Positions 1,819 through 59,098 of a stretch of 64,000 bases of DNA are shown in pieces. How positions within the stretch are numbered: position 1 is the first letter of the stretch; the number at the start of each line of letters is the position of its first letter. Below the pieces are notes generated by a model that saw only the letters and a program-made list of their open reading frames with translations, was not told the origin of the DNA and made no database searches. The stretch is from the IMG/VR virus record IMGVR_UViG_3300045015_000053. One strand, written 5' to 3'. This stretch comes from a virus. Lineage: Duplodnaviria; Caudoviricetes. A program made the position numbers and the translations under genes.

Positions 1819-2640
1819 ATGAAATCCAAATTCTCTGTCGAAAGCGGTGAGCTTTCGATAACCGTAGAGGATGTCGGCCACGAAGAGGCCGCGAAGCAAG
1901 CCCTGAAAATCTGGCAAGCCGCCGAGGAACGCCTTTGTCTCGGCGGCTTGCTCACCGTTAAGGGCAAACCCAAGAAACTCGGAGAACGTATCTTCTCGAC
2001 AGCCACCGTTTTGGCCGAACTGGGCATCAACTTTTTCAAGAACGCCGAAGACCTGATGACCATGCCCCCGGCCAAGCCCAAGATCACGAAGACCGAAGAC
2101 ATCGCCACCGAGAAGTGGCTCGCCCTCAAGCGGCTGCACTACAAGTGGCCCGGCGGCAAGAACATGGTCTGGGACTTCGTCACGCGGCCCACCCGCAAGG
2201 GCAAGCACGATGCCGTGGTCGTCGTCCCGTTTCTCAAGAACCCGAACCGGCTGGTAGTCACCCGCGAGTTCAGGCTGCCGATCAACGACTTCGAGATCGG
2301 CTTCTGCGCGGGCCTGATCGACGGGACTGAAACACCGGAGCAGGCCGCGCGACGGGAACTGAAAGAAGAAACCGGACTCGAACTGAAGAAGGTGTTGTCC
2401 GTCAGCCCGCCACTGTTCAGTTCGCCCGGCATGACGAACGAGAACGTGGTGATGGTCTTCTGCGAGGCGGAAGGCCAGTTAGTCGGCGTAGACTCGGACG
2501 AAGAACACATCGAGGCTTTTGTCCTCGATCTCAAGGGCGTAGAAGAAGTTCTCAGGAAACCACCATGCTCCATGAGCCAGAAGCTCTGGCCCGTGCTGTG
2601 CATGATGAAACAACAAGGATTCATCGGATGGAAAGCTTGA
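1819..2640 (+). CDS. Nudix hydrolase (ADP-ribose pyrophosphatase-like) with an N-terminal extension of about 80 aa
   Basis: Nudix box AGLIDGTETPEQAARRELKEETGL, REFRLP, SPG; possible second start MTMPP near 2056. Confidence 0.9.
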   Translation: MKSKFSVESGELSITVEDVGHEEAAKQALKIWQAAEERLCLGGLLTVKGKPKKLGERIFSTATVLAELGINFFKNAEDLMTMPPAKPKITKTEDIATEKWLALKRLHYKWPGGKNMVWDFVTRPTRKGKHDAVVVVPFLKNPNRLVVTREFRLPINDFEIGFCAGLIDGTETPEQAARRELKEETGLELKKVLSVSPPLFSSPGMTNENVVMVFCEAEGQLVGVDSDEEHIEAFVLDLKGVEEVLRKPPCSMSQKLWPVLCMMKQQGFIGWKA

Positions 2641-3614
2641 AATCAAAGGTCAAGGGGATGCTGTACGGGGTAGCTGTGGGTGACGCCCTCGGTCAGCCCC
2701 ACGAAATGAAGCCGCCCCTCGGTCATCCCGTCACGGATTACCCGGACACGGGAGGTCGCACGACCGACGACTGGCAGTTGACGCGGGCGATGGCTCGCGG
2801 TCTGATCGTCGGTCGCGGGTTCGACATGCCGACCTTGATCAAAGAACACGTCGCGGCCTACAAGACGACGACACGCGGGTGGGGCGGCGCACACCGGAAC
2901 GCCTGCGAAGGTCTGAGTAAGGGTGTGTCGCCGAAGGAAACCGGCAAACTCGCGCTCGATCCGGCGAAGCCGTATCGCGGACGCGGCAACGGTATGTGCA
3001 TGAAGATCTCCCCGCTCGCGGCCTACCACTTCGTCAAGAAGCAGAGCCTCGAACAACGAATGCCGACAGTGGCCGAACTCACCATGATGACCCACGCCAC
3101 CGGCATGGGCTTGGCGAGCGCAGCCGCGATGGAGGCCGCACTGTTCTACTGTCTCGGCGTGTCACCGCAGGACTTCGACCGGAACGACTTCCTCGCTATG
3201 GCTTCGGCAAGTGCGGGGTACGCCGAGTCGTGGGTGGTCAACGAGGAGAACCCGCCCGCAGAGAAGTTGTCCGAACGCCTTAGTCAGTTGGCGAAGATCG
3301 ACTGGAACAATTTCGGGCCGGAAGAAATCATCGCCGAGTACAAGGGCGGCGGGTACGTCTACGAGAGCCTGCCGTTCTCGCTGGCCTTCTTCTGTTTGGG
3401 GAAGCAAGACCTGAACTGCGTTTACGACTGCGTCGGCAGCGGCGGCGACACCGACACCAACGGCTCGATGGTGGCGGCTCTGGTCGGCGCACTTCAAGGC
3501 GAAGGAATTTTTCCCGAAAAGCTGCTTTACAAACTCAACGACTTTGTCGATATTGACCAAGTCACTGAGGCGTTCGCCGACTGGTGCAAGATCCAGACGC
3601 CTCCAGTCAACTGA
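2628..3614 (+). CDS. ADP-ribosylglycohydrolase (DraG/ARH family)
   Basis: GMLYGVAVGDALG, TTDDWQLT, GNGMCMK, GGDTDTNGSMVAALVGA; start overlaps the end of the Nudix gene. Confidence 0.92.
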   Translation: MESLKSKVKGMLYGVAVGDALGQPHEMKPPLGHPVTDYPDTGGRTTDDWQLTRAMARGLIVGRGFDMPTLIKEHVAAYKTTTRGWGGAHRNACEGLSKGVSPKETGKLALDPAKPYRGRGNGMCMKISPLAAYHFVKKQSLEQRMPTVAELTMMTHATGMGLASAAAMEAALFYCLGVSPQDFDRNDFLAMASASAGYAESWVVNEENPPAEKLSERLSQLAKIDWNNFGPEEIIAEYKGGGYVYESLPFSLAFFCLGKQDLNCVYDCVGSGGDTDTNGSMVAALVGALQGEGIFPEKLLYKLNDFVDIDQVTEAFADWCKIQTPPVN

Positions 3615-3665: not shown

Positions 3666-4283
3666 ATGAACGAGAACATCCGCCCCACCCAGAACGAGAT
3701 CGACACCGTCGTCGCGGGCATCGCGTACAACCAGATGGGCTACAACAGCCAACTGGCCGACGCGCGACTGGTCGATCTGGCCCTCGCCAAGCCCACCGCT
3801 GAAACCGCCCTCGCCACCGAGACGAACGGCGCGGACGGCGACGAGTACGACCCGGCGACCGCCGCGAAGAAGGCCGCGATCAACGCGGCAGACGCGGCGG
3901 CGGTCAAGCTGCACGCGGCAGCGGCCGAGACGATCAAGAAGCACCCGGAGCGGACGCTGCTCGCGAGCCGCCTCAACGTCAAGTTGCTCACCGGGAAGCC
4001 GGGCAACTTCTCCTTCACGAAGGAAGAAACGGACTTCATCGTCACCGGGCTTCGCGGCGTCGAACACTTCGACATCGAAGGCTCCCGCTACACCGAAGTG
4101 GTCATGAACGCGGTGGTCGGCACCCCCACCCACCTCGGTTCGGCCTACTCGCAACGTCAGTCGCAGGCCGAACGCGCCCGGCTCCAGACCGTCCGCGACG
4201 ACTTCCTCGCCCTGTTCTCGAAGTTCATCCAGTACCAGCGGGCCTTCGCCGCGACCCCGGAAACCAACAACAACGACCAGTGA
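3666..4283 (+). CDS. hypothetical protein (Ala-rich)
   Basis: GGGAAAG RBS; strong codon bias. Confidence 0.8.
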   Translation: MNENIRPTQNEIDTVVAGIAYNQMGYNSQLADARLVDLALAKPTAETALATETNGADGDEYDPATAAKKAAINAADAAAVKLHAAAAETIKKHPERTLLASRLNVKLLTGKPGNFSFTKEETDFIVTGLRGVEHFDIEGSRYTEVVMNAVVGTPTHLGSAYSQRQSQAERARLQTVRDDFLALFSKFIQYQRAFAATPETNNNDQ

Positions 4284-9297: not shown

Positions 9298-9567
9298 ATG
9301 ATGGACGGTCCTCGCTATGTCGTCGGCCTTCGCGATCCGAAACAGAGCAATCTGTACAAGGACATGATCGAGGGCGAGAAAGAGGGCGAGGCCAAGCAAC
9401 AGGCCGAGGAACTGGCGGCGAAGGAAGGCCGCGCCACGATAGTCTGGGATCGCAAGAACCACGAAGTGATTCACAGGGTCGCGGGCAAGGACGATCCTGT
9501 TGAGAAACAAGAAACCAAGCCCGAACCGAAAAAACGGGGAAGGCGTAAACAAGAGGACGCTTCCTGA
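9298..9567 (+). CDS. hypothetical protein with a basic C-terminus
   Basis: Clean ORF. Confidence 0.75.
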   Translation: MMDGPRYVVGLRDPKQSNLYKDMIEGEKEGEAKQQAEELAAKEGRATIVWDRKNHEVIHRVAGKDDPVEKQETKPEPKKRGRRKQEDAS

Positions 9568-9582
9568 CCCTATAATACCTTG

Positions 9583-9916
9583 CCTCTGAAACTTATGAGG
9601 AACATTCGGGAGCCGAAGGAGAGACAGTTGCTGGTGACCGGACTGATCCGAGGGTAGATTTCCCCGGATCGGGTTGAAGGGCATATGGGTCTGGTGTGGA
9701 TGGGCTGTTCCCCTACCGGCGGCTTGCCGCCAACGCACATGACCCAGAGCAGCAGCGCTACCCCGTCCAAGAGTCCCAGATGTTTTGGGTTGAGGACGCG
9801 CCAACTTACCATGTTGTAAGTAGCGTTGTGGCTACCGCTAACGTGGCGGTAGGATCGAACCAACCCTTGCCGAATGGGGGTCAACACCAGCAGGAAACTG
9901 CTGGTGTTTCCTTTTT
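9583..9916 (+). ncRNA. candidate structured ncRNA, about 330 nt
   Basis: TATAAT at 9571-9576, terminator at 9883-9916, several hairpins, long-range complement CATTCGG (9603) / CCGAATG (9870), no convincing ORF. Confidence 0.4.
9883..9916 (+). terminator. Rho-independent terminator
   Basis: AACACCAGCAG-gaaa-CTGCTGGTGTT then TCCTTTTT. Confidence 0.8.
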
Positions 9917-9917
9917 G

Positions 9918-9929
9918 GTCTATACTGAC
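9918..9929 (+). promoter_or_regulatory. GTCTATACTGAC promoter box
   Basis: Exact motif upstream of the RBS and ATG 9951. Confidence 0.75.
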
Positions 9930-9950
9930 CCCAACACACAGGAGAACAAG

Positions 9951-10541
9951 ATGCTTTCTTTACAAATGGCCGGTTACGGGATGGGGATGGTCGGGGTCGC
10001 GAATAACGCGAACCTCAACGCATTGTCCTACGGGATCAGCCAGTTGATCAGTTGGGGTTTGGGCTGTGGCGCACACCGTCTGACCTTCAAGGCCGACAAG
10101 AACCGCGTCGGGATTTCGGTCTTCATGGACCCCGAAGTCGAGCCGCAGGTGATTTCGGCGGCAGGGTGCTGCACGATGCAGGGCTTGCACGAGATGGGGC
10201 TGCTGCCGCAAGACATCCCCCAGTTTGAGCGGATGAACATGGACGGCGCGACCAACACGGCGAAGGACGGGCAGTCGCGGTTCTCGTTCAAACAGGGCGA
10301 GGGAATCCTGATCCAGAACTACAACGTGAGGCCAGAACTCTCGCTCGCGACGTGGGCGTTCGCCCACGCCGACCACATCACCGGCTTCATCTGGCGGGGT
10401 GCGAGGGAAATCAAGGTCTTTCACAGCATGAAGCTGACTCAGATCTACATGAGTCCGGCGATTGCCGATGACGTGGCGAAGACCGCGATGGCGGGCGAGC
10501 AGAACTATCCGCAGGACACGCTGATCTCCAGCATCAAGTGA
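9951..10541 (+). CDS. hypothetical protein
   Basis: AGGAG RBS; the ORF-track start at 9696 is upstream of the promoter and terminator. Confidence 0.8.
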   Translation: MLSLQMAGYGMGMVGVANNANLNALSYGISQLISWGLGCGAHRLTFKADKNRVGISVFMDPEVEPQVISAAGCCTMQGLHEMGLLPQDIPQFERMNMDGATNTAKDGQSRFSFKQGEGILIQNYNVRPELSLATWAFAHADHITGFIWRGAREIKVFHSMKLTQIYMSPAIADDVAKTAMAGEQNYPQDTLISSIK

Positions 10542-18124: not shown

Positions 18125-19051
18125 TAGTGTTCTTGTTCTGGACGACGTTATCTATGTTGTCTTTCAGATGGAGGAGGAATTCTTTCTGCTTGCCGTTTTT
18201 GATCGCCAAGTTCAAAGAAGCAAGAAGCTCCAGGGCGTCTTTGCTGTATTGTTCTTTGTTTTTCATCGCGTGTTTCAAGACTTCGCCCAGATTGTCTTCG
18301 GTAGCCAACTCCCCGGTCAGCCTCGCGTAGTCCCTCTTCAAAGCGGCCAGACGGACACCGATCTCTTCAAAATCGAAATAATAGTTCTCCGTATCCGAAG
18401 CCTTCTTCCCTCCGAGGACGCCGCCGGCCGCGAAGCTCATCATCCTGTCCTGGGTGGAGTGTGACAGTTCGTGAGCCAGAGTGTGGATTTTGCTAACGTC
18501 GGACACAACGCAGTATTTCTGCGATTTGCCGTTTACTGTCACAACGCCACAGAATCCGTTGACCTGTTTCTTCCCCGCGTTAGAGTTCCATCCGGCCTTT
18601 TGGAAAATTCGTTGGGATCAATTCCGACAACAACTGGCACCGGCTTGTCCAGTAGTTTCGCGTCCATCGCCGTCCCGTCGAGCCGAAAGGTTTGTTTGGA
18701 CGCGCGGTCTACCGAAGCCTTGTATAGCTTGTCGTTACCATAAAGGGGTTGGATTATTTGTGATGGGGTAATCATCTTGATGTTGTTTCTGCCGATGTTG
18801 ACATGCGGGTACTCTTTCTTCAAAGCGACAAGTATGTAATCGACTTCTTGCTCCCCGCTTTTCACCATTTGTTGTTTCGGTTCGGCAGATTGTTGTGCTT
18901 GAGGTGCGTGAGGTGACAGAGACATACCCAAACCCGTCGCTCCCAGTGTCGCAAGTCTGGCAGCGTTTTTGAAAAAACCCTCTTCAAGCGTGAAGTACTC
19001 TAAAGTAATTTCCGCGTTGACGAATTTGCTGAACTCTTTGGCACCTATCAC
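18105..19051 (-). CDS. putative HExxH metallopeptidase with a capsid-targeting-like N-terminus, split by a -1 frameshift near 18600
   Basis: ORF 19051-18539 (MIGAKEFSKFVNAE..., hydrophobic stretch) continues in the -1 frame as FQKAGWNS...HTLAHELSH. Confidence 0.65.
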
Positions 19052-22000
19052 TCTTCTCCTCCCGGCGGTCGATACCCAGGCTGGCCCTTCAGCTTCACGA
19101 TGTGCAGTTGGTCCATAGCCCGCGTGTAGGCGACGTAGCGTGCGTTCTCCTCTTGGAGTTTGTCGGCTTCCTTCGTGGCTCGCGGGTGCGGGAACTGGTC
19201 GTCACGCAGAATGTAGACGCGAGAGAACTCCAAGCCCTTCGACTTGTGAGCCGTCGTCAACACCACCGGGTGTTCCTTCTTCACCTTCTCGTTGAATGCT
19301 CTCAGGTCGGCCTCGTTGTCCTGAACGTCGAAACCGCCCAGGCGAGCCTTGAGCCACTTCTTGAAGTCTTTGACGGTCGGCATCGGTTTGGCCGCGACCG
19401 CCCGCATCATCGCGTCGTGCGCCCGGTCGTCCATCTCCTCCACGTCACGCGACATCCCGGTGAACGCCGCCAGTGCGGAGTAAAGAGCTTCCGAGGTGGC
19501 GTTCATTTCCTGTAGGTACGCCTTCTTGGAGTTCATCGAACTGAACCGCTCGTTTTCTTTCTTCTGGTACTCTTCGAGCTTCACGCCGAGGTTCGGCCGA
19601 CCGCCCGCTCGCGGGTGCGGGATCGCCGGGGAATCGTCCCTCATCTTGGCCCCCTTCAAGACCTTGCCGATGTGACGCATCAATTCGTTTGACACGTCGC
19701 GACCCACGATGATGAACGGCACGCCGTCGCCCAACATCTTCAACGCGGCCTGAACCAGCGGTTCGTTGGTACGGGCGATGAACGCCGTTTCCGGCATTTT
19801 CGGCCCGCCCTTTTTCGAGTCCTCGTGTTCCTTCTTGAGCGTGGTGAAGACCTCGCCATATTCCTTGTCTTGGTTTGTGACTTCGCCACCACCGCCGTTC
19901 GGGTACTTGCTCTCACTGTGTTTGAGGCCGGTAACGTGGCCCATGTTGTTGACGTGGTCGAGAATGCCCTTCCGCGAGCGGTAGTTCGTCGTCAGCGTGT
20001 GTTCCGTGTCCTTGTCGCCCGAAAGCTCTTTCAGGGTCCGGCCGAGGCTGTGGAAGGCGTCACCGTCAGCGCCACGGAAGCGGTAAATGGCTTGGTTCGG
20101 GTCGCCTACCGCCACGATCTTCGCGCCGGCACCGTGCAACTTCTCCAGCATCAGCTTTTGGCACGGGTTGAAGTCCTGCACCTCGTCGGCGAGGACCACG
20201 TCGTAGTGCGGCCAGTGCATGTCGTGGGCGTTGATCGCGGCGAACCAGATGTCGTCCGAGAAGTCGCGCATGCTGCCCAGGTCGTATTCCATGCCCTTGA
20301 AACTGAGGGTCTGCGTCGTTCCCTTCGGCAGACTAGCCTTCAGCAGCCACTCGGCTGCCTCAGCGATCTCGTCCTTAAAGTTCTTGCCCATGAAGTCGAA
20401 GCCGTAGACCTTCTTCAGAGCGGCCAGAACTTCCGTGACCATGCTGCTCGAACGGTACTTCCTGATGCGTTCTTTGATTTCGGCCAGCCCGGTATCGAGG
20501 TCGTAACCCTTGAACAGCTTTTCGAGTTCGGCCTTGACGTGGTTGCCGTCTTTTCGCGGATCGACGCCGTAAGCTTTCGCCAAGTCAGCGACCTTCTGCG
20601 AGACTTCCTTGAACATATAGCGGATGGAGTGTGCGCAGCTTTTCGCGGCCGTCGTTGAGTATTCCCCAATCGGCATCTTCTCGATGATGGCGTCGGCGGT
20701 CGCGTCTTCAACGATGCCTAGTTTCTTCAGCACCTCGTTGAACTGCGATCCGTCCACGATTTCGCCCATTTTGCTTCGCGGCATCGGCGACTTTTCTTCC
20801 TCGTCCTCGTCTTCCGAAGCCTTGTTCCGCTTCTTGTTGAGTACCTCGATCATCCGCTCGGTCTGGTCGATCCGGCTGACATTCTCGTTCGACTTCAGCA
20901 AGTTGCCGAGGAAGCCGTTCGTGGTGCGAACGTCAACCCAGGAGGTTGGGAACTTCTCTTGAGCCTCGACCTTGTTCTTGGTGTTGAACACCAGATACAG
21001 CCAGCGTTCGCCCGGCTTGCCGTATTTCCACGCCAAGTGCTTCAACATCGTCGTGTTGTGTGTTACGACGCAGTTTTCTGTGACGTACAAGTTGTCTTTC
21101 GCGTCAACCGCAATGCATTGACACGGTTTTTTGCCAATCGAAGTGATTGACTTGATGACCCTAGACGGCTGATACTTTGTTTTGGGAGTGTACTTCTCCT
21201 GTTTCCTTTTCAAAGAAAAGGGATTGCCAGAGATTTTGATGTACACTCGGTAGCAAGGCTTGCCTGATTTTTTGACCCCTTTGTATGTGTAACTCGTTTT
21301 CTTGTGGGTGATTTTCCCGGTTCCGCCCAGTGACTCAACGAGGAATTTAATGTCTTTGGCAAGACGATACGAAGCGGTAGGGTAGAAAATCGTGTGGGTT
21401 CCGACTTCTCCATCTGTGTCGAGAAGTCCGCTCAACACTTTCGCTCTTGTCTCAACTGTATTGAATTTGTAAATGTCTGGAACAAATTTATTGTCGGACC
21501 CCATTCTCCACAAGCCTAGTTTTTTGATCTCTGCCACAATTTCGTTCTTCCGGCCTTTGATGCCGCTTGAAATACGATAATCGCAGCCATATCCTGTCGG
21601 CCGGCTTTTCAAAGCAGGAGGCAGTAACCGATCAACGCTTTCGACTATTTCTTTGTCTTCCGATGAGTAGGACACGCAGCCGGTTCTGAAACTCCCGTCA
21701 CCCAGAAGCACGCCCATTAAATACGGATCAATGATTGTCAGTTGCGAAGCAAACTCGACGTTTTCGACCATTGGAACATAGTGTTTTGGTTGTTTTCTGT
21801 AGAGCAAATCGCCAGCAATTTCTTTGGTAGTTAGGACTTTGCCATAAGAGAAAAGAGGTATTCCCTTTTGTTGACAGTAGACTCTTTCTCGTTTGCATTC
21901 TGTCAGCCAAAGGTGATCTTCAGAGCATTCCACAATGGACCCGTCCATAAATCCGACTTCGACCACTTCTTGCATCCCTTGAGGGAAGACTCCAATAACT

Positions 22001-23019
22001 TTGTGTGGTTTGCCGTCACGTCCAATGACCAGATTATTGACTTTAATGTCGCCCATCCTGATCCAGCCTTTTGGGGTCAAGATTTTGGAATCAAGTGGTT
22101 GAGCTTTGCCCGACCCGGCCAGAGCGTTGATCATCATGTGATCCTGGCTCTTGCTGGACATCATCTGCTCGAACCGCGCGTCGATCCGTCGCTGTTCGTC
22201 CGACAATTTCTCGTGTTCGAGGACGTGCTTTTTCTTGTCCGCGTCGTTCGGCTTGCCCTTCGACAACTTGCCCTCGACCAAATCGTGCAACTCGGCCAGA
22301 CTCGGCGCGGAGTAGATGCTCTTGCCGTCATCCTGTTTGACCGACTGCACCACGTTCGGGAGGTCGGACTTGGTAGTCGCGGCCATACGCTGGCCGCCGA
22401 ACGTCCAGATCTCCCAAGCGCCGTTCTCGGCCTCGACAACGCCCACGTCTTCGTCGGCCTTGATCGTTTCGATGTCCTGCTTGGTTTTGGCGTAGATCCA
22501 CTTCTGGCCCTTAGCAGGTGCGGCCGATGGCTTTGCTTGAGTTTGAGCTTGTTGTGGTTGTTGCGGCTGTGTGGCTCTGTGGGTGGCGGCGACTTGTCGG
22601 AGAGCTTCGATGGAGTCGGCCATTACCGGGGTGTTCCCGTCGCGGACGGACTTGACGTAGTTCGCCAGTTCTTTTTCAGACACGAAGGCGCGGGCGTTCG
22701 TGTCGAGGTGGACGACTTCCCACGTCCCTTCACGGGGTTTTGAAACGCCCACGTCATCGCCGGCCTTCAATTGACCGACCGGCTTGATGATTCGACTGTA
22801 GATCCAGCGACCCGTGGGCTGTTTGTTGGTTTCCAAGAGGCACCTTGAGAGGATTTCGTCCTGAATTTCCAGATAAAATGCGTCACCCAGGTCGCTGCGG
22901 TGGTAGTTTTCAGCGATCCATTTTAGGTCGGAAACTGACGTTTCGCTGCCGAAATAGAAGTTCTTGTAGAACCGCGAGCGGCATTCTGAAACGAGCCAGT
23001 TTTTGAAGTCGAGTTTCAT
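19048..23019 (-). CDS. SF1 UvrD/Rep-like helicase with intein and a capsid-targeting-like N-terminus
   Basis: ALAGSGK|TT, ADEVQD, AVGDPNQAIYRFRGAD, NYRS, TAHKSKGLEF, YVAYTRA; N-terminus MKLDFKNWLVSE (alternative start 23043). Confidence 0.92.
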   Translation of the reverse strand: MKLDFKNWLVSECRSRFYKNFYFGSETSVSDLKWIAENYHRSDLGDAFYLEIQDEILSRCLLETNKQPTGRWIYSRIIKPVGQLKAGDDVGVSKPREGTWEVVHLDTNARAFVSEKELANYVKSVRDGNTPVMADSIEALRQVAATHRATQPQQPQQAQTQAKPSAAPAKGQKWIYAKTKQDIETIKADEDVGVVEAENGAWEIWTFGGQRMAATTKSDLPNVVQSVKQDDGKSIYSAPSLAELHDLVEGKLSKGKPNDADKKKHVLEHEKLSDEQRRIDARFEQMMSSKSQDHMMINALAGSGKAQPLDSKILTPKGWIRMGDIKVNNLVIGRDGKPHKVIGVFPQGMQEVVEVGFMDGSIVECSEDHLWLTECKRERVYCQQKGIPLFSYGKVLTTKEIAGDLLYRKQPKHYVPMVENVEFASQLTIIDPYLMGVLLGDGSFRTGCVSYSSEDKEIVESVDRLLPPALKSRPTGYGCDYRISSGIKGRKNEIVAEIKKLGLWRMGSDNKFVPDIYKFNTVETRAKVLSGLLDTDGEVGTHTIFYPTASYRLAKDIKFLVESLGGTGKITHKKTSYTYKGVKKSGKPCYRVYIKISGNPFSLKRKQEKYTPKTKYQPSRVIKSITSIGKKPCQCIAVDAKDNLYVTENCVVTHNTTMLKHLAWKYGKPGERWLYLVFNTKNKVEAQEKFPTSWVDVRTTNGFLGNLLKSNENVSRIDQTERMIEVLNKKRNKASEDEDEEEKSPMPRSKMGEIVDGSQFNEVLKKLGIVEDATADAIIEKMPIGEYSTTAAKSCAHSIRYMFKEVSQKVADLAKAYGVDPRKDGNHVKAELEKLFKGYDLDTGLAEIKERIRKYRSSSMVTEVLAALKKVYGFDFMGKNFKDEIAEAAEWLLKASLPKGTTQTLSFKGMEYDLGSMRDFSDDIWFAAINAHDMHWPHYDVVLADEVQDFNPCQKLMLEKLHGAGAKIVAVGDPNQAIYRFRGADGDAFHSLGRTLKELSGDKDTEHTLTTNYRSRKGILDHVNNMGHVTGLKHSESKYPNGGGGEVTNQDKEYGEVFTTLKKEHEDSKKGGPKMPETAFIARTNEPLVQAALKMLGDGVPFIIVGRDVSNELMRHIGKVLKGAKMRDDSPAIPHPRAGGRPNLGVKLEEYQKKENERFSSMNSKKAYLQEMNATSEALYSALAAFTGMSRDVEEMDDRAHDAMMRAVAAKPMPTVKDFKKWLKARLGGFDVQDNEADLRAFNEKVKKEHPVVLTTAHKSKGLEFSRVYILRDDQFPHPRATKEADKLQEENARYVAYTRAMDQLHIVKLKGQPGYRPPGGEE
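21055..22104 (-). mobile_element. class 3 intein (350 aa) with a LAGLIDADG endonuclease, inserted in Walker A
   Basis: Starts AQPLDSKILTP, ends VVTHN before Thr; HLW, CQCIAV and THN give the W-C-T triplet; LLGDG and LLDTDG motifs; lower GC. Confidence 0.92.
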
Positions 23020-23049
23020 GTTGTCCTTGTTCTGCTTTCCCATCACGGT

Positions 23050-23056
23050 TATGTAG
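23050..23056 (-). promoter_or_regulatory. late-promoter-like box CTACATA
   Basis: 6 nt upstream of the ATG at 23043. Confidence 0.5.
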
Positions 23057-23150
23057 TTACGCGGAACCGAACTCAAACTGGCAGTTTTTCGATCTCGGCA
23101 TTGTCACAATCGAGCGTTTCGGTTACGCTTTCTCGAAACGGAGGTTTACG

Positions 23151-26392: not shown

Positions 26393-26463
26393 CCACCTTT
26401 GGGCCAGTGGCTGGCCAGCGATCTCTAAAATCGCGCACATCGGTTCGATTCCGATAAGGTGGG
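26393..26463 (+). tRNA. amber-suppressor tRNA, anticodon CUA
   Basis: Full cloverleaf: acceptor CCACCTT/AAGGTGG, D stem GGCC/GGCC with GG in the loop, anticodon stem GCGAT/ATCGC with loop CT-CTA-AA, 4-nt variable loop, T arm ATCGG-TTCGATT-CCGAT, G73; CCA not encoded. Confidence 0.9.
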
Positions 26464-26528
26464 CTGAATCTAAAACAAAATTTGCATTGGTCAGAACGAC
26501 AATCGGTTCGATCCCCACAAGGTGGGCT
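26464..26528 (+). pseudogene. degenerate tandem copy of the tRNA 3' half
   Basis: ATCGGTTCGATCCCCACAAGGTGGGCT vs ATCGGTTCGATTCCGATAAGGTGGGCT, plus a TCTAAAA remnant. Confidence 0.6.
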
Positions 26529-35614: not shown

Positions 35615-35923
35615 ATGACGCTTCAAGAGATCTATGCGATCATCTGGAAAGAAGGCGTGAATTCGCCTTCTTTGCCGCGAGGGTGGCTTCTTCCGCAAAA
35701 CCTGAAACCGGCCCAGATCAACGAACATTTCCCGGTCGATGCTTTGGTCATGGTTATGGCCGATTCTTACGGGGAACGCGATTTCGTTTACCCGAATCTG
35801 AGAAAGAGATCGTGGTGGTTCGGTCGTGTCGAGGCAGCAACAAGTGACAGGAACGTTCGTGTCAGAAGTACGTTTTCGGGAGCAGTTCGTTCGGTTCCGT
35901 ACAATAAGATCAGGATTTACTAA
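35615..35923 (+). CDS. hypothetical protein
   Basis: GAGGAA RBS. Confidence 0.7.
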   Translation: MTLQEIYAIIWKEGVNSPSLPRGWLLPQNLKPAQINEHFPVDALVMVMADSYGERDFVYPNLRKRSWWFGRVEAATSDRNVRVRSTFSGAVRSVPYNKIRIY

Positions 35924-35924
35924 C

Positions 35925-36362
35925 ATGACCGTCGTCTGCCAGAACCGCAAAGCCCGCTTCGATTATGAGGTTGTCGAAACCGTCGAAGCGGGTATTGTGC
36001 TGAAAGGCACGGAAATCAAATCCGTGCGAAACCACCGCGTTTCTCTCGACGGAGCGTATGCCAGCGTGGACGCCGGAAACGTTACGCTAGTCGGCTGCAA
36101 CATCGAGCCGTATTCGCACGGCAATGTTCACAATCACGAAGCCAAGCGTGACCGACGCCTGTTGCTCAACCGGAGCGAGATCGACAAGATCGCGAGCAAA
36201 GCGGCGGTGAGGGGGTTCACGTTGATCCCGCTGTCGATGTACATCAAGGACGGTCGCGCCAAGATCGAACTGGCCGTCTGTCGCGGTCGGCAGACGCACG
36301 ACAAGCGGCACGCCATCAAGGACCGCGAAGTGAAGAAGGCGATGAAACGGGGAAAATTCTGA
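35925..36362 (+). CDS. smpB: SsrA-binding protein SmpB
   Basis: NRKARFDY, EAGIVLKGTEIKSVR, RRLLL, GFTLIPL, HDKR. Confidence 0.97.
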   Translation: MTVVCQNRKARFDYEVVETVEAGIVLKGTEIKSVRNHRVSLDGAYASVDAGNVTLVGCNIEPYSHGNVHNHEAKRDRRLLLNRSEIDKIASKAAVRGFTLIPLSMYIKDGRAKIELAVCRGRQTHDKRHAIKDREVKKAMKRGKF

Positions 36363-37008: not shown

Positions 37009-37515
37009 ATGGGTTCCAAACCACACAGCAGGCCGTGGCACAACGGCACAATCGAAGACTGCGAAATCAAAGAGCCGAGGCTCTACAATCGCGAAGAAGT
37101 CGATCAGCCGATGCTCGACATTCGCGAAGAGGCCAACAAAGCTCGCGAGAGCGGGATCATCGGCGAGTCCGGCGCGGAAGCATTCTTCTGCAACACCACC
37201 GTCTGCATCAAAGAGAAGAATGACGCCTTGAAGTTGTCGGGCCTCCAGTGCCACGACGACCTCATCATGGATCTGTTCAAAGAGAAGTGCGAGCAGTACA
37301 AACGCGGTCACGACCGCATCAAAGACATCCGCGAGGAACAGGTGCAGCAAGAAAAGCTGCTCGAAGCTCTCGCTTTGAAGATCGGTTACGACGCGGTTTC
37401 CTTCTCGGAGTACGGCGTCAAAGTCAGTCGCGGGTTGTTGAAGCAGAACTTCCCCTCGATTTACGACAATCGCGGGCGTAGAATCGAAAACTACGGTGAC
37501 GGTTGGGATGCCTGA
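37009..37515 (+). CDS. hypothetical protein
   Basis: GAGGA RBS. Confidence 0.8.
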   Translation: MGSKPHSRPWHNGTIEDCEIKEPRLYNREEVDQPMLDIREEANKARESGIIGESGAEAFFCNTTVCIKEKNDALKLSGLQCHDDLIMDLFKEKCEQYKRGHDRIKDIREEQVQQEKLLEALALKIGYDAVSFSEYGVKVSRGLLKQNFPSIYDNRGRRIENYGDGWDA

Positions 37516-37524
37516 GATTTTTGG

Positions 37525-37553
37525 TTGACAACGGTGCGAAACTGGCCTACATT
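37525..37553 (+). promoter_or_regulatory. sigma70 promoter TTGACA-N17-TACATT
   Basis: Perfect -35 and canonical spacing. Confidence 0.85.
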
Positions 37554-37590
37554 GATTTCATCAGGCCGCAGCACCACCCGTGGGCCGCAA

Positions 37591-37620
37591 CCCCGGAGCG
37601 AGCCAAAATTCGCTCCGGGG
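37591..37620 (+). other. 11-bp GC-rich hairpin in the 5' leader of the Pth2-like gene
   Basis: CCCCGGAGCGA-gccaaaat-TCGCTCCGGGG. Confidence 0.75.
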
Positions 37621-37645
37621 CATTTAACTCAAACTGGATACTACG

Positions 37646-38026
37646 ATGAAGACTCAGATCACTGCCGAACACCTGTAGGTTTCTGAAGAGAACACTCCGT
37701 ACTGTTACCTCTTCTTGCGGGAAGATCTTCCCCGCGTCTACAGTGCGGTCCAAGCGTGCCATGCCGCCATCGGCGGCGGGCAGTTCTTGATCCCCCAAAA
37801 CATCCCACACCCGCACCTCGTTCTGCTCAGGGCTTCCTCCGAGCAGGAGCTTCGCAACATCGCGTCCCGTTTGGAACGCGACGGGGTACGTCATTACGTT
37901 TTCACCGAGCCAGACATCGGTAATCAAACTACTGCGTTGATTACCGAGCCGGTATATGGTGACAAGCGTCGAGCGTTCCGTCGTTATCGCTGTGTGAACG
38001 AACCGCCGAAATTAGATAGCGGATAA
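37646..38026 (+). CDS. peptidyl-tRNA hydrolase II (Pth2)-like protein with an in-frame TAG at codon 11
   Basis: MKTQITAEHL*VSEENTPYCYLFLREDL...AVQACHAA...LVLLRA..E.EL...F.EPDIGNQTTAL; TAG at 37676-37678. Confidence 0.75.
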
Positions 38027-38064
38027 TTGTATGGAAACACATATGTGTTTCCATACATGGCGGC

Positions 38065-38544
38065 ATGGAAACAATCACTTGTATTCGATGCCGCCAATCC
38101 AAACCTCCAGAAGCTTTTCGTTTTAGAAACAAGTCTCTGGGGAAACGAGACACGCGATGTCGCGAATGTTTTTGCGACTATCACAAGCTGGTTTACGACC
38201 GGCTAACACCAGAACAAAAACAACAAAAAACGAAGTCTTCAACCGACTGTCGGAGGCGACTTAGGGCGAAGCTACATGCGGTGGTGTGGAATTACCTGTC
38301 TACGCACCCATGTGTGGATTGCGGTGAAAACGACCCGGTCGTTCTGGAGTTCGATCACCGCGATCCTGAGCAAAAAGTAGAAACGATCTGCGGCTTGCTC
38401 AGAAATCTGGCTGACAACCACACGCTGCTGACTGAAATTGCAAAATGCGACGTAAGGTGTGCCAATTGCCACCGACGCAAAACAGCAAAGCAATTTGGTT
38501 GGCACGCATTACGAGAGACTTATTATGAACACGAAAACGAATGA
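38065..38544 (+). CDS. HNH homing endonuclease
   Basis: CIRC, CRECF, HPCVDCGE, LEFDHRDP, CANCHRRKT; lower GC than flanking genes. Confidence 0.9.
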   Translation: METITCIRCRQSKPPEAFRFRNKSLGKRDTRCRECFCDYHKLVYDRLTPEQKQQKTKSSTDCRRRLRAKLHAVVWNYLSTHPCVDCGENDPVVLEFDHRDPEQKVETICGLLRNLADNHTLLTEIAKCDVRCANCHRRKTAKQFGWHALRETYYEHENE

Positions 38545-39067: not shown

Positions 39068-39652
39068 ATGCAAACGTCTTTCCTTTTGTGGATCGAAAAC
39101 AAAGATCCCGAACTCGCCCGTCTGTTGGAAGCGGAATGGGGCCGACGCGACCGCAAGGGCCGCGTGGGACTCATCGCCGGTTCCGCCGCCGCTGCCGCCG
39201 CTGCTCTGGCTGGAGCTTGGTGGATGGGCGGCAGCGATGCAAAACCCACTTCCCACGCCGCGCCCCTGCCCGCACAAGTTGCTAAGAAAGAAGCCTCTCC
39301 GAAGCCGGTTTCGACGGAATTAGACTGGTACACGGGGCCGGACAAAGAGTATATTTTCAAGTACGCTTGTGACCCGTCGAACAACGGAAACACTTACTTC
39401 CGTTACTATGGTAGAGACGGGGCGACACAAGAGGGTTGGATCGCCAGAGTTCAGATGCCGGCTTCCGACACACAACCTCTGCGAGACGAAGACCTCGAAG
39501 CCCGGTTCAAGAGGCTCGCCCACGACGCCACGGACAAGATGAAGGACGTAAAGTGGCAGATCATAGCAAAAGGCCGAAAGAATCCGTACCCCAGAGAGGC
39601 GGGGACGGTGGAGATCGTGCTGTACGCCAAAAAACCAGTCGGAGAAAGATGA
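39068..39652 (+). CDS. putative capsid-internal protein with a TM segment
   Basis: MQTSFLLWIENKDPELARLLEAE; Ala-rich hydrophobic stretch. Confidence 0.7.
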   Translation: MQTSFLLWIENKDPELARLLEAEWGRRDRKGRVGLIAGSAAAAAAALAGAWWMGGSDAKPTSHAAPLPAQVAKKEASPKPVSTELDWYTGPDKEYIFKYACDPSNNGNTYFRYYGRDGATQEGWIARVQMPASDTQPLRDEDLEARFKRLAHDATDKMKDVKWQIIAKGRKNPYPREAGTVEIVLYAKKPVGER

Positions 39653-40650
39653 GCGAGACTGAAACCCAGTCGCCCGCCCGTTACCGTATTCAAGTAATTG
39701 TGAACCGCGAGATCATCTGCTCGCCCGCGAACGTGGACGAAACCGTGTCCTTCGAGTTGGGACGGCTCGCCAGTATGGGCTGCACATGCGTCGGCCACAA
39801 CGTCACCAAGATCAAAGAAAAGCCCCAGAAAAAGCGGCTCGGCGAGTTCACGCTCGATGACGTGATCCCCTACATCGCTACCTGCTCCCAACGAAACTAC
39901 GTCGCCAACGGCCACACCTACACCGTGCGAATGAACTCGCAGCGGTACTTCGTGTTCCGCGACAGTCCGAGTTGCGTGGCGTGCGGCTTGACCGGCACCA
40001 AGATGATCTTGGAACAGCATCCCGGTGACAAAACCGCTCACTTCAACCTGTACGCCGAAGAGAACGGCGAACTGGTGCTGATGACGAAGGACCACATCCG
40101 CGCCAGGAGTGCCGGCGGCGAGGACCGCCACAGCAACTACCAGACGATGTGCAGTATCTGCAACAACATCAAGGCACACGAGTCGGTCGCACTGGAAGAC
40201 CTCAGAAATCTGAGAGCGATCTACAACCGGCACGTCAACACGATGGCGAAGCGGGAATTGCACAAGGTTCTCGAAGAGGCCAAGAGACAGGTCGTCAGGA
40301 AGTCACTGCAAGAGGCGAAATGGGACGCAACTTACATTACGCAGCAGGATCTGAACGTTTTTGTCTATACTGACGGGGAACTGGAAGCGGTCAGCGTTTA
40401 CGCGCCGCTCGACGGCGAACACGTCTCTTGCATCTGCAAGGGGTGTCCGATGTCGGGAACGGTAGTCAACGGCTGGTTCGTGGCCGAACTCGTGGACGGC
40501 ACCAAAGTGCGTATGCCGTCTCGGTTCGTCAGACTCCTCGAAAAGAGTGGCGACGATGAAACGGGACTGTCGGACTCTGGAACTGCGTGTAATGACTTCG
40601 CCGAAGACTTGGGAGAAGTTCAAGCAGAAGGTGCGGGAAGCACGTCCTGA
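39649..40650 (+). CDS. HNH-domain protein
   Basis: CVACG, MTKDHIRARSAGGED, NYQTMCSICNNIKA. Confidence 0.85.
   Translation: MSETETQSPARYRIQVIVNREIICSPANVDETVSFELGRLASMGCTCVGHNVTKIKEKPQKKRLGEFTLDDVIPYIATCSQRNYVANGHTYTVRMNSQRYFVFRDSPSCVACGLTGTKMILEQHPGDKTAHFNLYAEENGELVLMTKDHIRARSAGGEDRHSNYQTMCSICNNIKAHESVALEDLRNLRAIYNRHVNTMAKRELHKVLEEAKRQVVRKSLQEAKWDATYITQQDLNVFVYTDGELEAVSVYAPLDGEHVSCICKGCPMSGTVVNGWFVAELVDGTKVRMPSRFVRLLEKSGDDETGLSDSGTACNDFAEDLGEVQAEGAGSTS
40363..40374 (+). promoter_or_regulatory. GTCTATACTGAC box inside coding sequence
   Basis: Exact motif about 220 nt upstream of ATG 40592. Confidence 0.5.
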
Positions 40651-41023: not shown

Positions 41024-41466
41024 AAGATCTTCTTCGCAATCTGCATGTCGTCACCACGCACCAAACGTGGAGCCTGTTCGTGAAACAGGTTTCTGCAATC
41101 CCAGAGGCCACGCCAGAAACCGCCTTCCGTCAGATTCTGAAAATGGCAATTCAGACCTTCCCCGCAGCACGGTATTCTGACAACATGAAGGCACTGCGCA
41201 AAAGATGGGAAGGGAAAGCGGCCAGCGTCAAGGCGTGGACTGCCAGCATCGGTCTGCCTAGCGAGGCCGAAACCTTCCAGATCATCCCGGCCGAAAATAG
41301 GCTTGTGTTTTCCGCCGAGAAGTGTGGTGTGCCGTTTTTGGAAGACATGATCCAGATCGCATATCCTGAGTGCATGTACAAGCCGTTTAACTGGATGCCG
41401 TTTAGCCGTCAAGTAGTTTTTGAAGGTCAAAACAAGTCCGGCATTAACATTGGAGACGTGAAGTGA
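41020..41466 (+). CDS. hypothetical protein
   Basis: ATGA coupling. Confidence 0.75.
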   Translation: MKDLLRNLHVVTTHQTWSLFVKQVSAIPEATPETAFRQILKMAIQTFPAARYSDNMKALRKRWEGKAASVKAWTASIGLPSEAETFQIIPAENRLVFSAEKCGVPFLEDMIQIAYPECMYKPFNWMPFSRQVVFEGQNKSGINIGDVK

Positions 41467-42740
41467 ACCCCAACATCCGCCCACTCCCCGACAAAATCGG
41501 CGTCGGCTTCCTGAGTCCTGAAAAGATCGGCGCGAGCGATTACCGCGAGGAGCGGGCCGCTCACGTCTGGCACTACTTCTTCACACCAGAACGTTGGACT
41601 TGGCCGCTGTGGGACTCGGCCGATCAAGAGAAACCCGGCCCGTCGTTCAAGATCGACGCCTTCTCGCCCAATCTCAACAAGAGCCTGCACTTCGGCCATT
41701 TGCGTCAACTCGCACTGGCCCATTGCATCGGCCGTCTACTGCCACGCACGCAATTCGTTTCGCTGTTGGGATGCACCGGCATCCTTCAGTCGGCACAAGA
41801 CGAACTGAAGGACTGGCTCGATTTCCTCAACATGCGTCCGAAACTGTACTACGACGCCCTGATGCCGCACGACCCGACCATCGTGGAGCGTCACGATGGA
41901 GAAGGCGACAAGGCCGGCGCGATGGTGTGGGACGGACCACTCGGCCCGGTCGTCGTCATGCGGAAGCCGGACGAATCGGGTCACCGCCGTCCGACTTATG
42001 CCTTCCACGATCTCGCTTTTGCGAAGATCGTGGGACCGGACTATTACATCACCGGCGCGGAACAAGTTGAACACTTCCGCAGTCTGGGGTTGGGCAACAA
42101 GCACCTGCCGATGGGCCTCGTCGTTGACGCCGAGGGCAAAAAGCTGAAGAGTCGTTCCGGTGACGCGATGACGGCCAAAGAGGGCTTCGAGGCGGTCGAA
42201 CTCGCCATGAAGCCGGTTCCAGATCCGAAGAAGATCGTCTGGAACATCGTGGCGTGGAACATGCTGTCGGTCGGCCGCAGCACGAACGTCAAGTTCGAGC
42301 CGGAAAAGTGGGTGAAGCCGGAAGCTCCGGGGATGTACTGCTCGTACACATGGGCGCGGCTGTACTCCGCTCTGGGCGGGCTGTACCGTGGCGACGGCAG
42401 TGACATGACCCAGAGCGATGCGGAACTGGCGGGGTATTCTCAGTACCGCCACTACTACATCGCGAAGGCTCGCCAGAGCATGGACCCGGCTCCGCTGGCG
42501 AACTACCTGTACGATCTGTGCCGCCGCGCTACGAAGGCGTACCACAGCGAGCGTATTCGTGACGGTCGTCGCGGGTTCCAGTTCGCGGTGAGCCACGCGA
42601 TGAACGGCATCTACGACTGCATGAACGCCCTCGGCCTGTTCCCAATCAAGATGCGGGAGGAAGACGATGTTCGAGACAACGGGGCCGCATTACTGCCCGA
42701 ACTGCGAGCCGATACTGAACAAGAAAGACCGTCGTGTTGA
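41463..42740 (+). CDS. argS: minimal arginyl-tRNA synthetase-like protein
   Basis: SPNLNKSLHFGHLR (HIGH), TYAFHDLA, YITGAEQVEHF, KKLKSRSG (KMSKS), YCSYTWARLYS and YLYDLCRRATKAYH (DALR domain), LGLFPIKM. Confidence 0.85.
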   Translation: MNPNIRPLPDKIGVGFLSPEKIGASDYREERAAHVWHYFFTPERWTWPLWDSADQEKPGPSFKIDAFSPNLNKSLHFGHLRQLALAHCIGRLLPRTQFVSLLGCTGILQSAQDELKDWLDFLNMRPKLYYDALMPHDPTIVERHDGEGDKAGAMVWDGPLGPVVVMRKPDESGHRRPTYAFHDLAFAKIVGPDYYITGAEQVEHFRSLGLGNKHLPMGLVVDAEGKKLKSRSGDAMTAKEGFEAVELAMKPVPDPKKIVWNIVAWNMLSVGRSTNVKFEPEKWVKPEAPGMYCSYTWARLYSALGGLYRGDGSDMTQSDAELAGYSQYRHYYIAKARQSMDPAPLANYLYDLCRRATKAYHSERIRDGRRGFQFAVSHAMNGIYDCMNALGLFPIKMREEDDVRDNGAALLPELRADTEQERPSC

Positions 42741-57566: not shown

Positions 57567-58142
57567 ATGAAAACCTTCGCAGAGTGGCTCGCCGTGGAAG
57601 CTCGCGCACCCAAGAACGAGTTGTTGCAATACGCACCCAACAAGAAGTATTTCACCATTTCTCCGCAATGGCACGACTTCTCTATTTGGTTTGAAAAGCA
57701 ACCGCCGTCCGACGCCGAACTCAGGATGATGGCCGAAATCATCAGCGGTCACGGATTCCCGACCAGAGTTGCCAAGACGGGCGAGCAATGGCCCTACAGC
57801 GGTGACAGGCGGTACGACGATCTGGCTGACGAAATCCGTCACAAGTGGGACGTTGCAGTTGATGACGCCGTCGAGGGCGTCCGAAAGTATCGCGCCGTTG
57901 TCGGCAGGAAGATCTCACACGGCACTCACCACGACGGCGGCGAGCGGATGCCATTCTATAACGACCAGATCGCCACCATCGTACACAACCTGCGATACGT
58001 CAAAGACGACCCCGAAAAAGCCAAGAAGATGTTCGACGCAATGGACCGCAACACCAAGTTCATTCTCGTTCACGACGCCGGTATGTTCACCTCGGACGGC
58101 GCATTGACTCCAGTCGCATCACAGTACCTCCGAGGCTACTAA
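57567..58142 (+). CDS. putative capsid-internal protein
   Basis: MKTFAEWLAVE closely resembles the T4 internal protein targeting sequence MKTYQEFIAE. Confidence 0.75.
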   Translation: MKTFAEWLAVEARAPKNELLQYAPNKKYFTISPQWHDFSIWFEKQPPSDAELRMMAEIISGHGFPTRVAKTGEQWPYSGDRRYDDLADEIRHKWDVAVDDAVEGVRKYRAVVGRKISHGTHHDGGERMPFYNDQIATIVHNLRYVKDDPEKAKKMFDAMDRNTKFILVHDAGMFTSDGALTPVASQYLRGY

Positions 58143-59098
58143 CTAAGATGAGGGATTGCCTTCTCGCCCACCCACGCGAGAATCTTGGTATCACCACGCT
58201 CTACCGCCTCGATCCAGCGGTGTTTGCCTTCGATAACGACCACCGGCCCTTTCACTGTGTAGGTGGGGTGTTTGCTCAACACTTCGTTCGCTTCCACGAT
58301 GATCGGCCCTAAGCTTTGGCTGCACGGCAGGTACTGCGGTCCTGTCGGTTTGAGTTTGGCGGTTTCCACTTCCATCAACTTGAACTTCTTGCTCACCACC
58401 AGATCAATCGGCACCGGGTCCAGCATTCCACGCACCTGATGCTCGTCAACTTCGGCTGCGTACTGGAAGAAACCCCACGAAACGGCTTGTTTGAAGAAGT
58501 CCTTCATCTTCCCGAACATCACGAACTTCTGGTCGTCGTCCTCCACGATTCCGTCTTTGGCCGCGAACGCGGTCATGGGATTCTTGTTTTCCGATTTTAG
58601 CAGCCGGCTCAGGTACGGGAAAACGGCGGGCGGCACCAGTGATCGCGCCGCTTCGTAGCCTTTGTTGATGCACACGTCTTTGACGGTACTGGATCGGATG
58701 TTCCTGATCTTGTCCGGGCCGAAGACGTAGTAGAAGTTGAGTTGCGGGCCGTGCGCCCGCATGTTCCGCTCGATGGCCTGCTCGTACACCAGATCGCGAG
58801 CATCGCGAACCCCACGAACGAGACAGATGTCGTTAAAATGAATGCCGCGTTCTGCGACCTGTTTCTTGCACCAGTCAACTGTCGTGGGGGTGTCAAGTAT
58901 CTGGACGTAGGCTTTGGTGTGGGAGATTGATAGGGAGAGCATGTCCGCGCGTTCGCGGAGGGTGAAGGTGTAGTGCTTGGCGGGGTTGGGGCCAATGACC
59001 GCCTGAACCTCGTCGGCCATCTTGCAGGCTTGTTCGATGAGGTAAACGTGGCCGAGTTGTACGGGATCGTAACTGCCGGCGACGACAGCGATTTTCAT
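58139..59098 (-). CDS. coaD: phosphopantetheine adenylyltransferase (CoaD)-like domain fused to a ParB-N/sulfiredoxin-like domain
   Basis: AVVAGSYDPVQLGH, NPAK, FTLRER, LVRGVRD...YE, IRSSTVK; C-terminal PVVVIEGKHRWIEAVERG. Confidence 0.8.
   Translation of the reverse strand: MKIAVVAGSYDPVQLGHVYLIEQACKMADEVQAVIGPNPAKHYTFTLRERADMLSLSISHTKAYVQILDTPTTVDWCKKQVAERGIHFNDICLVRGVRDARDLVYEQAIERNMRAHGPQLNFYYVFGPDKIRNIRSSTVKDVCINKGYEAARSLVPPAVFPYLSRLLKSENKNPMTAFAAKDGIVEDDDQKFVMFGKMKDFFKQAVSWGFFQYAAEVDEHQVRGMLDPVPIDLVVSKKFKLMEVETAKLKPTGPQYLPCSQSLGPIIVEANEVLSKHPTYTVKGPVVVIEGKHRWIEAVERGDTKILAWVGEKAIPHLS

Follow-up and report, generated by a model that had tools for sequence, protein, structure and literature searches.

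The gene of release factor 2, prfB, is autoregulated via an early in-frame UGA and a +1 frameshift, by which it senses its own product. In other systems, a stop codon is read by a suppressor transfer RNA (tRNA). Code-15 phages, such as Lak and crAss-like phages, have suppressor tRNAs and TAG is read as Gln (bioRxiv 10.1101/2021.08.26.457843; PMC9523058). The phage XacN1 uses the standard code and harbors two tRNA genes with the anticodon CUA (tRNA-CUA), for which its authors identified no target genes (PMC5852040), and amber codons have also been built into an engineered feed-forward loop (PMC7969014). The present analysis deals with a 64,000-nucleotide stretch of DNA from a virus of the Caudoviricetes (IMG/VR record IMGVR_UViG_3300045015_000053), referred to at its full length as the window, and with one of its genes, which encodes a protein resembling the peptidyl-tRNA hydrolase Pth2 and is interrupted after ten codons by an in-frame TAG. 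Comparison of related loci indicates that this Pth2-like gene is probably translated only when a suppressor tRNA of the phage reads the stop. Full-text literature searches turned up no account of such a pairing between a Pth2-like gene gated by a stop and a suppressor tRNA.

The gene lies on the + strand, and all coordinates are those of the whole window. The elements from which the proposed gate would be built are the following:

26393-26464, + strand: tRNA with the anticodon CUA, an amber suppressor (ARAGORN; Rfam RF00005).
37636-37638, + strand: weak Shine-Dalgarno (SD) core GGA, 7 nt 5' of ATG 37646.
37646-37675, + strand: ten-codon leader MKTQITAEHL, with the ATG at 37646-37648 followed by nine codons.
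37676-37678, + strand: in-frame TAG, the putative gate, as codon 11; the next base is a purine (G).
37679-38026, + strand: body of the gene with the Pth2 fold, 115 codons plus TAA.

The frame after the TAG is uninterrupted from GTT 37679 to the TAA at 38024-38026 and is in zero frame with ATG 37646, so that the read-through product amounts to 126 residues. The initial annotation of this DNA had described a ten-codon open reading frame (ORF), a TAG and an in-frame Pth2-like body, and both coordinates and frame hold in sequence and translation. In the window sequence, no ATG, GTG or TTG can be found between TAG 37676 and TTG 37715. The SD sequence of the relatives reads GGA, GGAG or AAGGAG at the same spacing to the ATG, as seen in the alignment and in the SD strings of about 100 loci.

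In the mechanism proposed here, ribosomes would start only at ATG 37646, the sole start bearing an SD, and would reach TAG 37676 after ten codons. Should termination by release factor 1 prevail there, the outcome would be a free 10-residue peptide and no enzyme. When the TAG is decoded by the tRNA-CUA, which is presumably expressed and charged, translation would continue in frame to the 126-residue Pth2-like protein. The gene would be gated by, and would report on, the activity of its cognate suppressor tRNA, and the conserved residues adjacent to the stop may adjust how release factor and tRNA compete for it. The stop is under selection, both of its sides appear to be translated and the stop tracks the anticodon; suppressor decoding is the simplest mechanism.

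The decay of a gene would begin with just such an early nonsense codon, but the probability that the locus is a pseudogene or an assembly error can be regarded as negligible. Contigs assembled from four lake-water metagenome runs agree letter for letter over 37400-38100; the window itself possibly comes from one of these runs. Within the clade to which the window belongs (seven members, namely the window and the loci L124, L001, L004, L005, L002/L003 and L040), ATG, nine codons and TAG are found in frame in 7/7 members at 70-82% identity, with the stop at the same codon throughout, and family-wide the in-frame stop persists down to 31% identity. A sense codon at the position of the TAG occurs in none of the relatives or contigs seen. 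Purifying selection can be recognized on both sides of the stop: the leader follows the pattern (I/L/M)-T-A-x-H-(L/T) with codons changing synonymously, the residues from the TAG to the first β-strand (beta-1) are kept as protein by synonymous codon variants, and synonymous changes flank the TAG in the clade alignment (ACT/ACC, GCC/GCT, CTG/CTC, CAC/CAT). This is the outcome of the alignment of homologues that the initial annotation had recommended, namely a conserved TAG amid synonymously varying codons. Judged from these alignments, the TAG is neither an error nor a sign of decay, the stop is conserved and under selection, and the codons flanking it on both sides appear to be translated. The initial annotation had further envisaged a possible role of the ten-residue peptide in termination arrest or as a sensor; the conserved leader residues next to the stop would fit a tuning of the stop context.

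The same clade bears on the idea that translation starts at TTG 37715, the upstream frame being untranslated or irrelevant. Downstream of the TAG, no canonical start comes earlier than this TTG, which encodes residue 24 of the read-through product, and the called products of relatives mostly begin at an internal Met (protein search), the equivalent ATG having been chosen by gene callers in L001, L004 and L005. However, the equivalent codon is ATG in only those three members and CTA, GTT or GTC in L124, L002 and L040, and the TTG of the window has no SD; moreover, the protein sequence encoded by the 12 preceding codons is conserved, and the site falls inside beta-1 (residues 19-25), of which it would leave two residues. 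Because ATG, CTA, GTT and GTC alternate among the clade members, this position is that of a hydrophobic β-strand residue and not a start. A start at the TTG is thus extremely unlikely, in keeping with the initial annotation, according to which it would truncate the fold. That annotation had also concluded that a full-length 126-residue product requires read-through of the TAG, which is supported here: the TAG is present in all clade homologues and run contigs, and no start led by a ribosome-binding site was found downstream of it. In L124, the closest relative, the gene caller predicted no gene at the locus.

Scanning viral, metagenome and genome collections and adding GenBank phages yielded about 130 related loci. 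Among them, 73 distinct loci share one design, in which an SD-led leader of 1-12 codons is followed by an in-frame stop and no canonical start precedes beta-1, a recurrence that exceeds chance. The stop stands at codons 2-13 family-wide, and beta-1 lies 2-13 codons past the stop in gated loci. The gate is TAG in 69 loci, TAA in two and TGA in two, its common context being TTC ACG TAG GTN, where the window has CAC CTG TAG GTT. A suppressor tRNA can be found in the available DNA of 44 of the 73 gated loci and its anticodon matches the stop in 44/44, with 41 TAG/CUA, two TAA/UUA and one TGA/UCA pairs. Under permutation, so perfect a match has a probability of about 2.5e-5, a value that ignores relatedness. 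All suppressor tRNAs found (84/84) are co-oriented with the gene, at a median distance of 0.87 kb and a maximum of 11.3 kb, the latter in the window. The tree places the loci gated by TAA and by TGA apart, as distinct events. Stop and anticodon switched together in L097, because this TAA-gated locus is nested in a TAG-gated clade (support 100/98) and the acceptor stem of its tRNA-UUA is the same as that of the tRNA-CUA of that clade. As a separate observation, two in-frame TAGs can be found between leader ATG and beta-1 in L008/L009 and L107/L109, forming a double gate with the layouts M-R-P-F-Q-stop-7 codons-stop and M-P-F-K-stop-7 codons-stop, with a tRNA-CUA 0.46-0.49 kb upstream.

Two further explanations have to be set against this survey. 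According to the first, which is quite improbable, the ten-codon frame is a regulatory upstream ORF and the Pth2-like frame is reached by termination-reinitiation or from a non-canonical start after the stop, with no suppressor involved. A leader with its own SD and a conserved peptide would suit such a role, and a start codon directly follows the stop in a few loci (GTG in L002; ATG in L113, L114 and L034) or stands four codons past it, as the ATG does in XacN1 and Xoo-sp13. Nevertheless, the post-stop codon is mostly a non-start (GTT, GTA, GTC, GGC, ATC, AAC or similar), and since GTT, GTA or GTG is found there in the clade of the window, it behaves as a sense Val codon rather than as a start. 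Any stop would do for an upstream ORF, yet the stop matches the anticodon next door even through the switches to TAA/UUA and TGA/UCA, and reinitiation leaves the strict in-frame layout of 73 distinct loci unexplained. The second explanation, of similarly low probability, is a read-through programmed by context and carried out by near-cognate tRNAs of the host, the phage tRNA-CUA serving other purposes. The stop context is indeed strongly conserved, with a purine 3' of the stop in 71/73 gated loci, and in the window the tRNA is 11.3 kb away. Against this stand the covariation of stop and anticodon, the shared orientation and the median distance below 1 kb, as well as the members that lack a gate in phages lacking a suppressor tRNA: ordinary starts are present in L029, L031, L032 and L036, from phages with no suppressor tRNA in view. 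Decoding by the phage suppressor remains the reading preferred here.

Gated loci also occur in phages that are cultured or completely sequenced. The leader is MAQ-TAG in GAP32 and CBB and MT-TAG in ME3, each of these phages having a tRNA-CUA within 10 kb, and the same holds for two uncultured phages of 595 kb and 735 kb, with MTH-TAG and MS-TAG leaders, respectively. In RsoM2USA the leader is ML-TAG, and a suppressor tRNA did not show up within 10 kb of the gated gene. In RaK2, seen within 3 kb only, the gene has an ordinary ATG start. The gated gene is unannotated or truncated in several of the cultured or complete phage records; the proposed gate accounts for the gene being missed or cut short in deposited annotations, e.g., those of GAP32, CBB, ME3 and RsoM2USA. 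Besides its amber-gated gene (about 9990-10315), CBB (L126) carries 6 kb before it an ungated Pth2-type gene (3848-4276) annotated as peptidyl-tRNA hydrolase (PF01981), and GAP32 also has two such genes according to annotation notes.

The family members of XacN1 and Xoo-sp13 (ORF364 and Xoosp13_327, respectively) are fusion proteins in which an HD-type phosphohydrolase domain precedes the Pth2-like one:

L120 (XacN1), 2440-3312: HD-Pth2-like fusion.
L130 (Xoo-sp13), 9440-10315: HD-Pth2-like fusion.

On the 5' side of these fusions there is an SD and an in-frame ATG-AAG-TAG or ATG-AAG-AAG-TAG, four codons before the annotated ATG. The association with an HD-type domain hints at work on tRNA 3' ends.

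Twelve loci of the family (L131-L142) come from bacterial assemblies, all of them of Planctomycetota (Pirellulaceae and Planctomycetaceae); one is an 8.3-Mb chromosome of Rubripirellula and another a contig of 2.0 Mb. The in-frame stop is present in 11/12, the piece of L138 beginning inside the gene, and a short Met-started leader in 10 of these 11, no leader Met being evident in L139. A tRNA-CUA can be found in 9/12, mostly about 0.85 kb downstream and in L139 about 130 nt upstream. Their usual layout is M-x-G-F-T-stop-V, then the tRNA-CUA.

The tRNA-CUA of the window is the single tRNA detected there by ARAGORN, on the same strand as the gated gene and 11.3 kb upstream of it. It matches the Rfam tRNA model RF00005 over its full length with 53.9 bits (gathering score 29); the Rfam search of the whole window at gathering thresholds returned nothing, and the tRNA surfaced in a search of a 500-nt region. 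It has a canonical cloverleaf with a short variable loop, and its anticodon loop C-U-CUA-A-A has 7 nt with U33 and a purine at position 37. The label "Pyl" given by ARAGORN stems from the anticodon alone. Compared with 140 typed phage tRNAs, identity is 62-79% and the nearest neighbours are of mixed isotypes. In L001, the homologous position is occupied by a tRNA-CUA of diverged sequence. Right after the tRNA-CUA, the segment 26465-26530 repeats its T-arm and 3' acceptor half (about 22/26 bases) as an incomplete tRNA, at a place where L001 has a tRNA-Arg(UCU); this segment may be a decayed second tRNA or an insertion scar.

With a tRNA-CUA present, and recoded phages with such tRNAs being known (bioRxiv 10.1101/2021.08.26.457843), it could be thought that TAG is reassigned genome-wide as in code 15, the Pth2-like gene being one recoded gene among many. 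This is very improbable, since TAG ends about 10 of the 75 confidently coding ORFs of the window (about 13%), in some cases with an SD and the next start directly after it (TAG 710 and TAG 7189). Because TAG ends this share of genes, the phage uses the standard code and its genome is not recoded. No other TAG requiring read-through, with coding on both sides, was found in the window, so that a single gene of about 75, the gated one, is concerned. The other in-frame TAGs considered as gates (710, 6969, 7189, 13506, 16310, 39412, 44010, 44062, 56715, 60208 and others) were rejected as ordinary stops, spacer or non-coding frames.

Two of the other TAG-ended ORFs deserve a mention of their own. 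An 89-codon ORF within 443-1549 ends at TAG 710 and shares its frame with the gene that starts at ATG 722 and encodes a T4-type RNA ligase. The arrangement TAG-GGAG-ATG reads as an ordinary stop followed by an SD and a start, and suppression of TAG 710 would fuse both proteins. The minus-strand gene 58139-59098 ends in two consecutive TAGs (58136-58141), the second of which would lower read-through by a suppressor tRNA.

Regarding the protein, the initial annotation had suggested modelling the read-through product against Pth2 structures. The AlphaFold2 model built with 98 aligned sequences reaches a predicted local distance difference test (pLDDT) of 92.7, with residues 1-13 disordered and beta-1 formed by residues 19-25. 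In a Foldseek search against the PDB, the top 13 matches are all Pth2 (probability 1.0, template modelling score about 0.6-0.7), and profile alignments were obtained with the Pth2 chains 24bt, 1rzw, 2zv3, 1wn2 and 1q7s. The alpha/beta fold is thus that of Pth2 (PF01981; PDB 3erj, 2zv3, 1q7s, 1wn2, 1xty), at a sequence identity of 12-23%.

The catalytic residues of Pth2 are the Lys of a Gly-Lys loop and the Asp of a D-A-G motif. Motifs matching Pth2 can be found in beta-1 (V-R-x-D-L) and in helix 1 (Q-x-x-H-A), Q36 and H39 being invariant in the 98 sequences, and an acidic residue, D90, which is kept in at least 90% of them, lies opposite the D-A-G aspartate in the alignments. The family has a near-invariant set of its own (R25, D27, Q36, H39, E88, D90, T96 and R108). 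Some relatives carry precomputed PF01981 matches, and no NCBIfam model matches the protein of the window.

Several points weigh against the reading of the locus as a Pth2-like gene gated by the phage suppressor. The Pfam model PTH2 (PF01981) scores the protein at 20.3 bits, below the cut-off of 23 (E = 6.8e-4), and the canonical Gly-Lys loop is missing, the loop before the Q-x-x-H-A helix being two residues shorter and without a conserved Lys. An efficient suppressor would extend the TAG-ended proteins of about 10 of the 75 genes. No suppressor tRNA is seen in the available DNA of 29 of the gated loci, most of whose pieces span 1-6 kb and three 15-20 kb. Finally, the 11.3 kb between tRNA and gene in the window is the largest distance of the set, so that linkage is weaker here than at most loci.

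On account of the Pfam score below the cut-off, the missing Gly-Lys loop and the lack of an NCBIfam match, the protein is placed outside canonical Pth2; the model and alignments identify it as Pth2-like in fold and motifs, and it is not filed as a proven peptidyl-tRNA hydrolase. Its predicted enzymatic activity is uncertain, given the Pfam score and the missing loop. Since about 13% of the genes in the window rely on TAG for termination, suppression must be partial or timed.

As for the purpose of such a cassette, the synthesis of a hydrolase of tRNA esters may be tied to the read-through of stops, both in its occurrence and in its amount. It could act as feed-forward damage control, dealing with drop-off or stalled-ribosome products, or as feedback on suppression. 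A more tentative possibility is that the cassette is a homeostat of nonsense suppression, the enzyme hydrolyzing the ester of the charged or peptidyl suppressor tRNA, or the products of read-through. The amber gate might then close a feedback loop on the strength of the override, in a cassette mobile between giant phages and bacterial chromosomes, although this too is a speculative proposal and rather unlikely.

Further elements of the locus are listed here:

37525-37553, + strand: sigma-70-type promoter TTGACA-17-TACATT, 10/12 match to consensus in a scan.
37591-37620, + strand: 5' leader RNA hairpin with a 12-bp stem and a 6-nt loop, from a fold prediction.
38028-38057, + strand: perfect 13-bp palindrome with a 4-nt centre and no T-run, abutting the TAA of the gated gene.

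The promoter and the hairpin had both been put forward in the initial annotation. The promoter stands, both hexamers being kept in alignments of L004, L005 and L124. The hairpin does fold, but its sequence is unconserved: L001, L004 and L005 have none and an unlike hairpin takes its place in L124, and it was therefore rejected as a part of the mechanism. Possible roles of the palindrome are to delimit the transcript at its 3' end or to bind a protein; a terminator scan near it detected only the neighbouring minus-strand stem.

The window looks like a part of a huge lake-water phage, and a syntenic region can be found on a 586-kb contig. The neighbourhood includes the following genes:

19048-23076, minus strand: UvrD-type helicase of 1342 residues with a LAGLIDADG insert.
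35826-36362: SmpB (Pfam E = 3.6e-54), 1.3 kb upstream of the gated gene.
38065-38544 and 39436-40650: HNH endonuclease genes flanking the gated gene.
41463-42740: protein of 425 residues resembling arginyl-tRNA synthetase (ArgRS), with weak matches to its catalytic and DALR anticodon-binding domains.

The LAGLIDADG domain of the helicase is probably an intein. The window also encodes a GP88-family protein, a T4-type RNA ligase and a SpoU methylase. SmpB is syntenic in L001, L004 and L005 and is near the gated gene only in the clade of the window. No gene for transfer-messenger RNA (tmRNA) was found in the window, and tmRNA genes lie near the Pth2-like gene in three other loci (L031, L036 and L037). 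A linkage with SmpB or tmRNA is too sparse to be a rule. The ArgRS-like protein belongs to a large family of about 400-residue proteins on big phage contigs. It is not claimed as the enzyme charging the suppressor, its linkage to the gated gene being restricted to the clade and L016.

If the proposed gating holds, natural genomes would gate the translation of a specific gene by means of a stop codon and a suppressor tRNA, and the suppressor tRNAs of large phages with the standard code, whose purpose has been obscure, would gain a concrete and conserved client gene family. The idea is directly testable, since the cassette is present in cultured phages that infect laboratory hosts. With regard to XacN1, the HD-Pth2-like fusion shared with Xoo-sp13 is a candidate target of its suppressors, one out of reach of an in-silico extension beyond the annotated ends of genes.

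Recoded phages resemble the present case in that the host uses the standard code, the phage brings a tRNA reading the stop, and genes with in-frame stops are made only when this tRNA acts. Here, in contrast, a single gene in 64 kb is concerned, the stop lies in the first codons and always in one protein family, and TAG still ends about 13% of genes; no hydrolase is mentioned in the text of bioRxiv 10.1101/2021.08.26.457843. The cassette may represent a first step toward full reassignment of a stop codon.

As in synthetic gates, an early amber codon combined with a separately expressed suppressor tRNA constitutes an AND gate or a delay, although those gates are engineered, whereas the present cassette would be natural and widely conserved. 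As in prfB, a translation-related gene bears a conserved in-frame stop close to its start, and its yield depends on how the stop is read, which makes the stop a built-in gauge of termination efficiency. The two differ in that the gene described here would be read in zero frame by a dedicated tRNA gene and without a +1 frameshift; should the homeostat prove true, it would be a tRNA-based analogue of the autoregulation of release factor 2.

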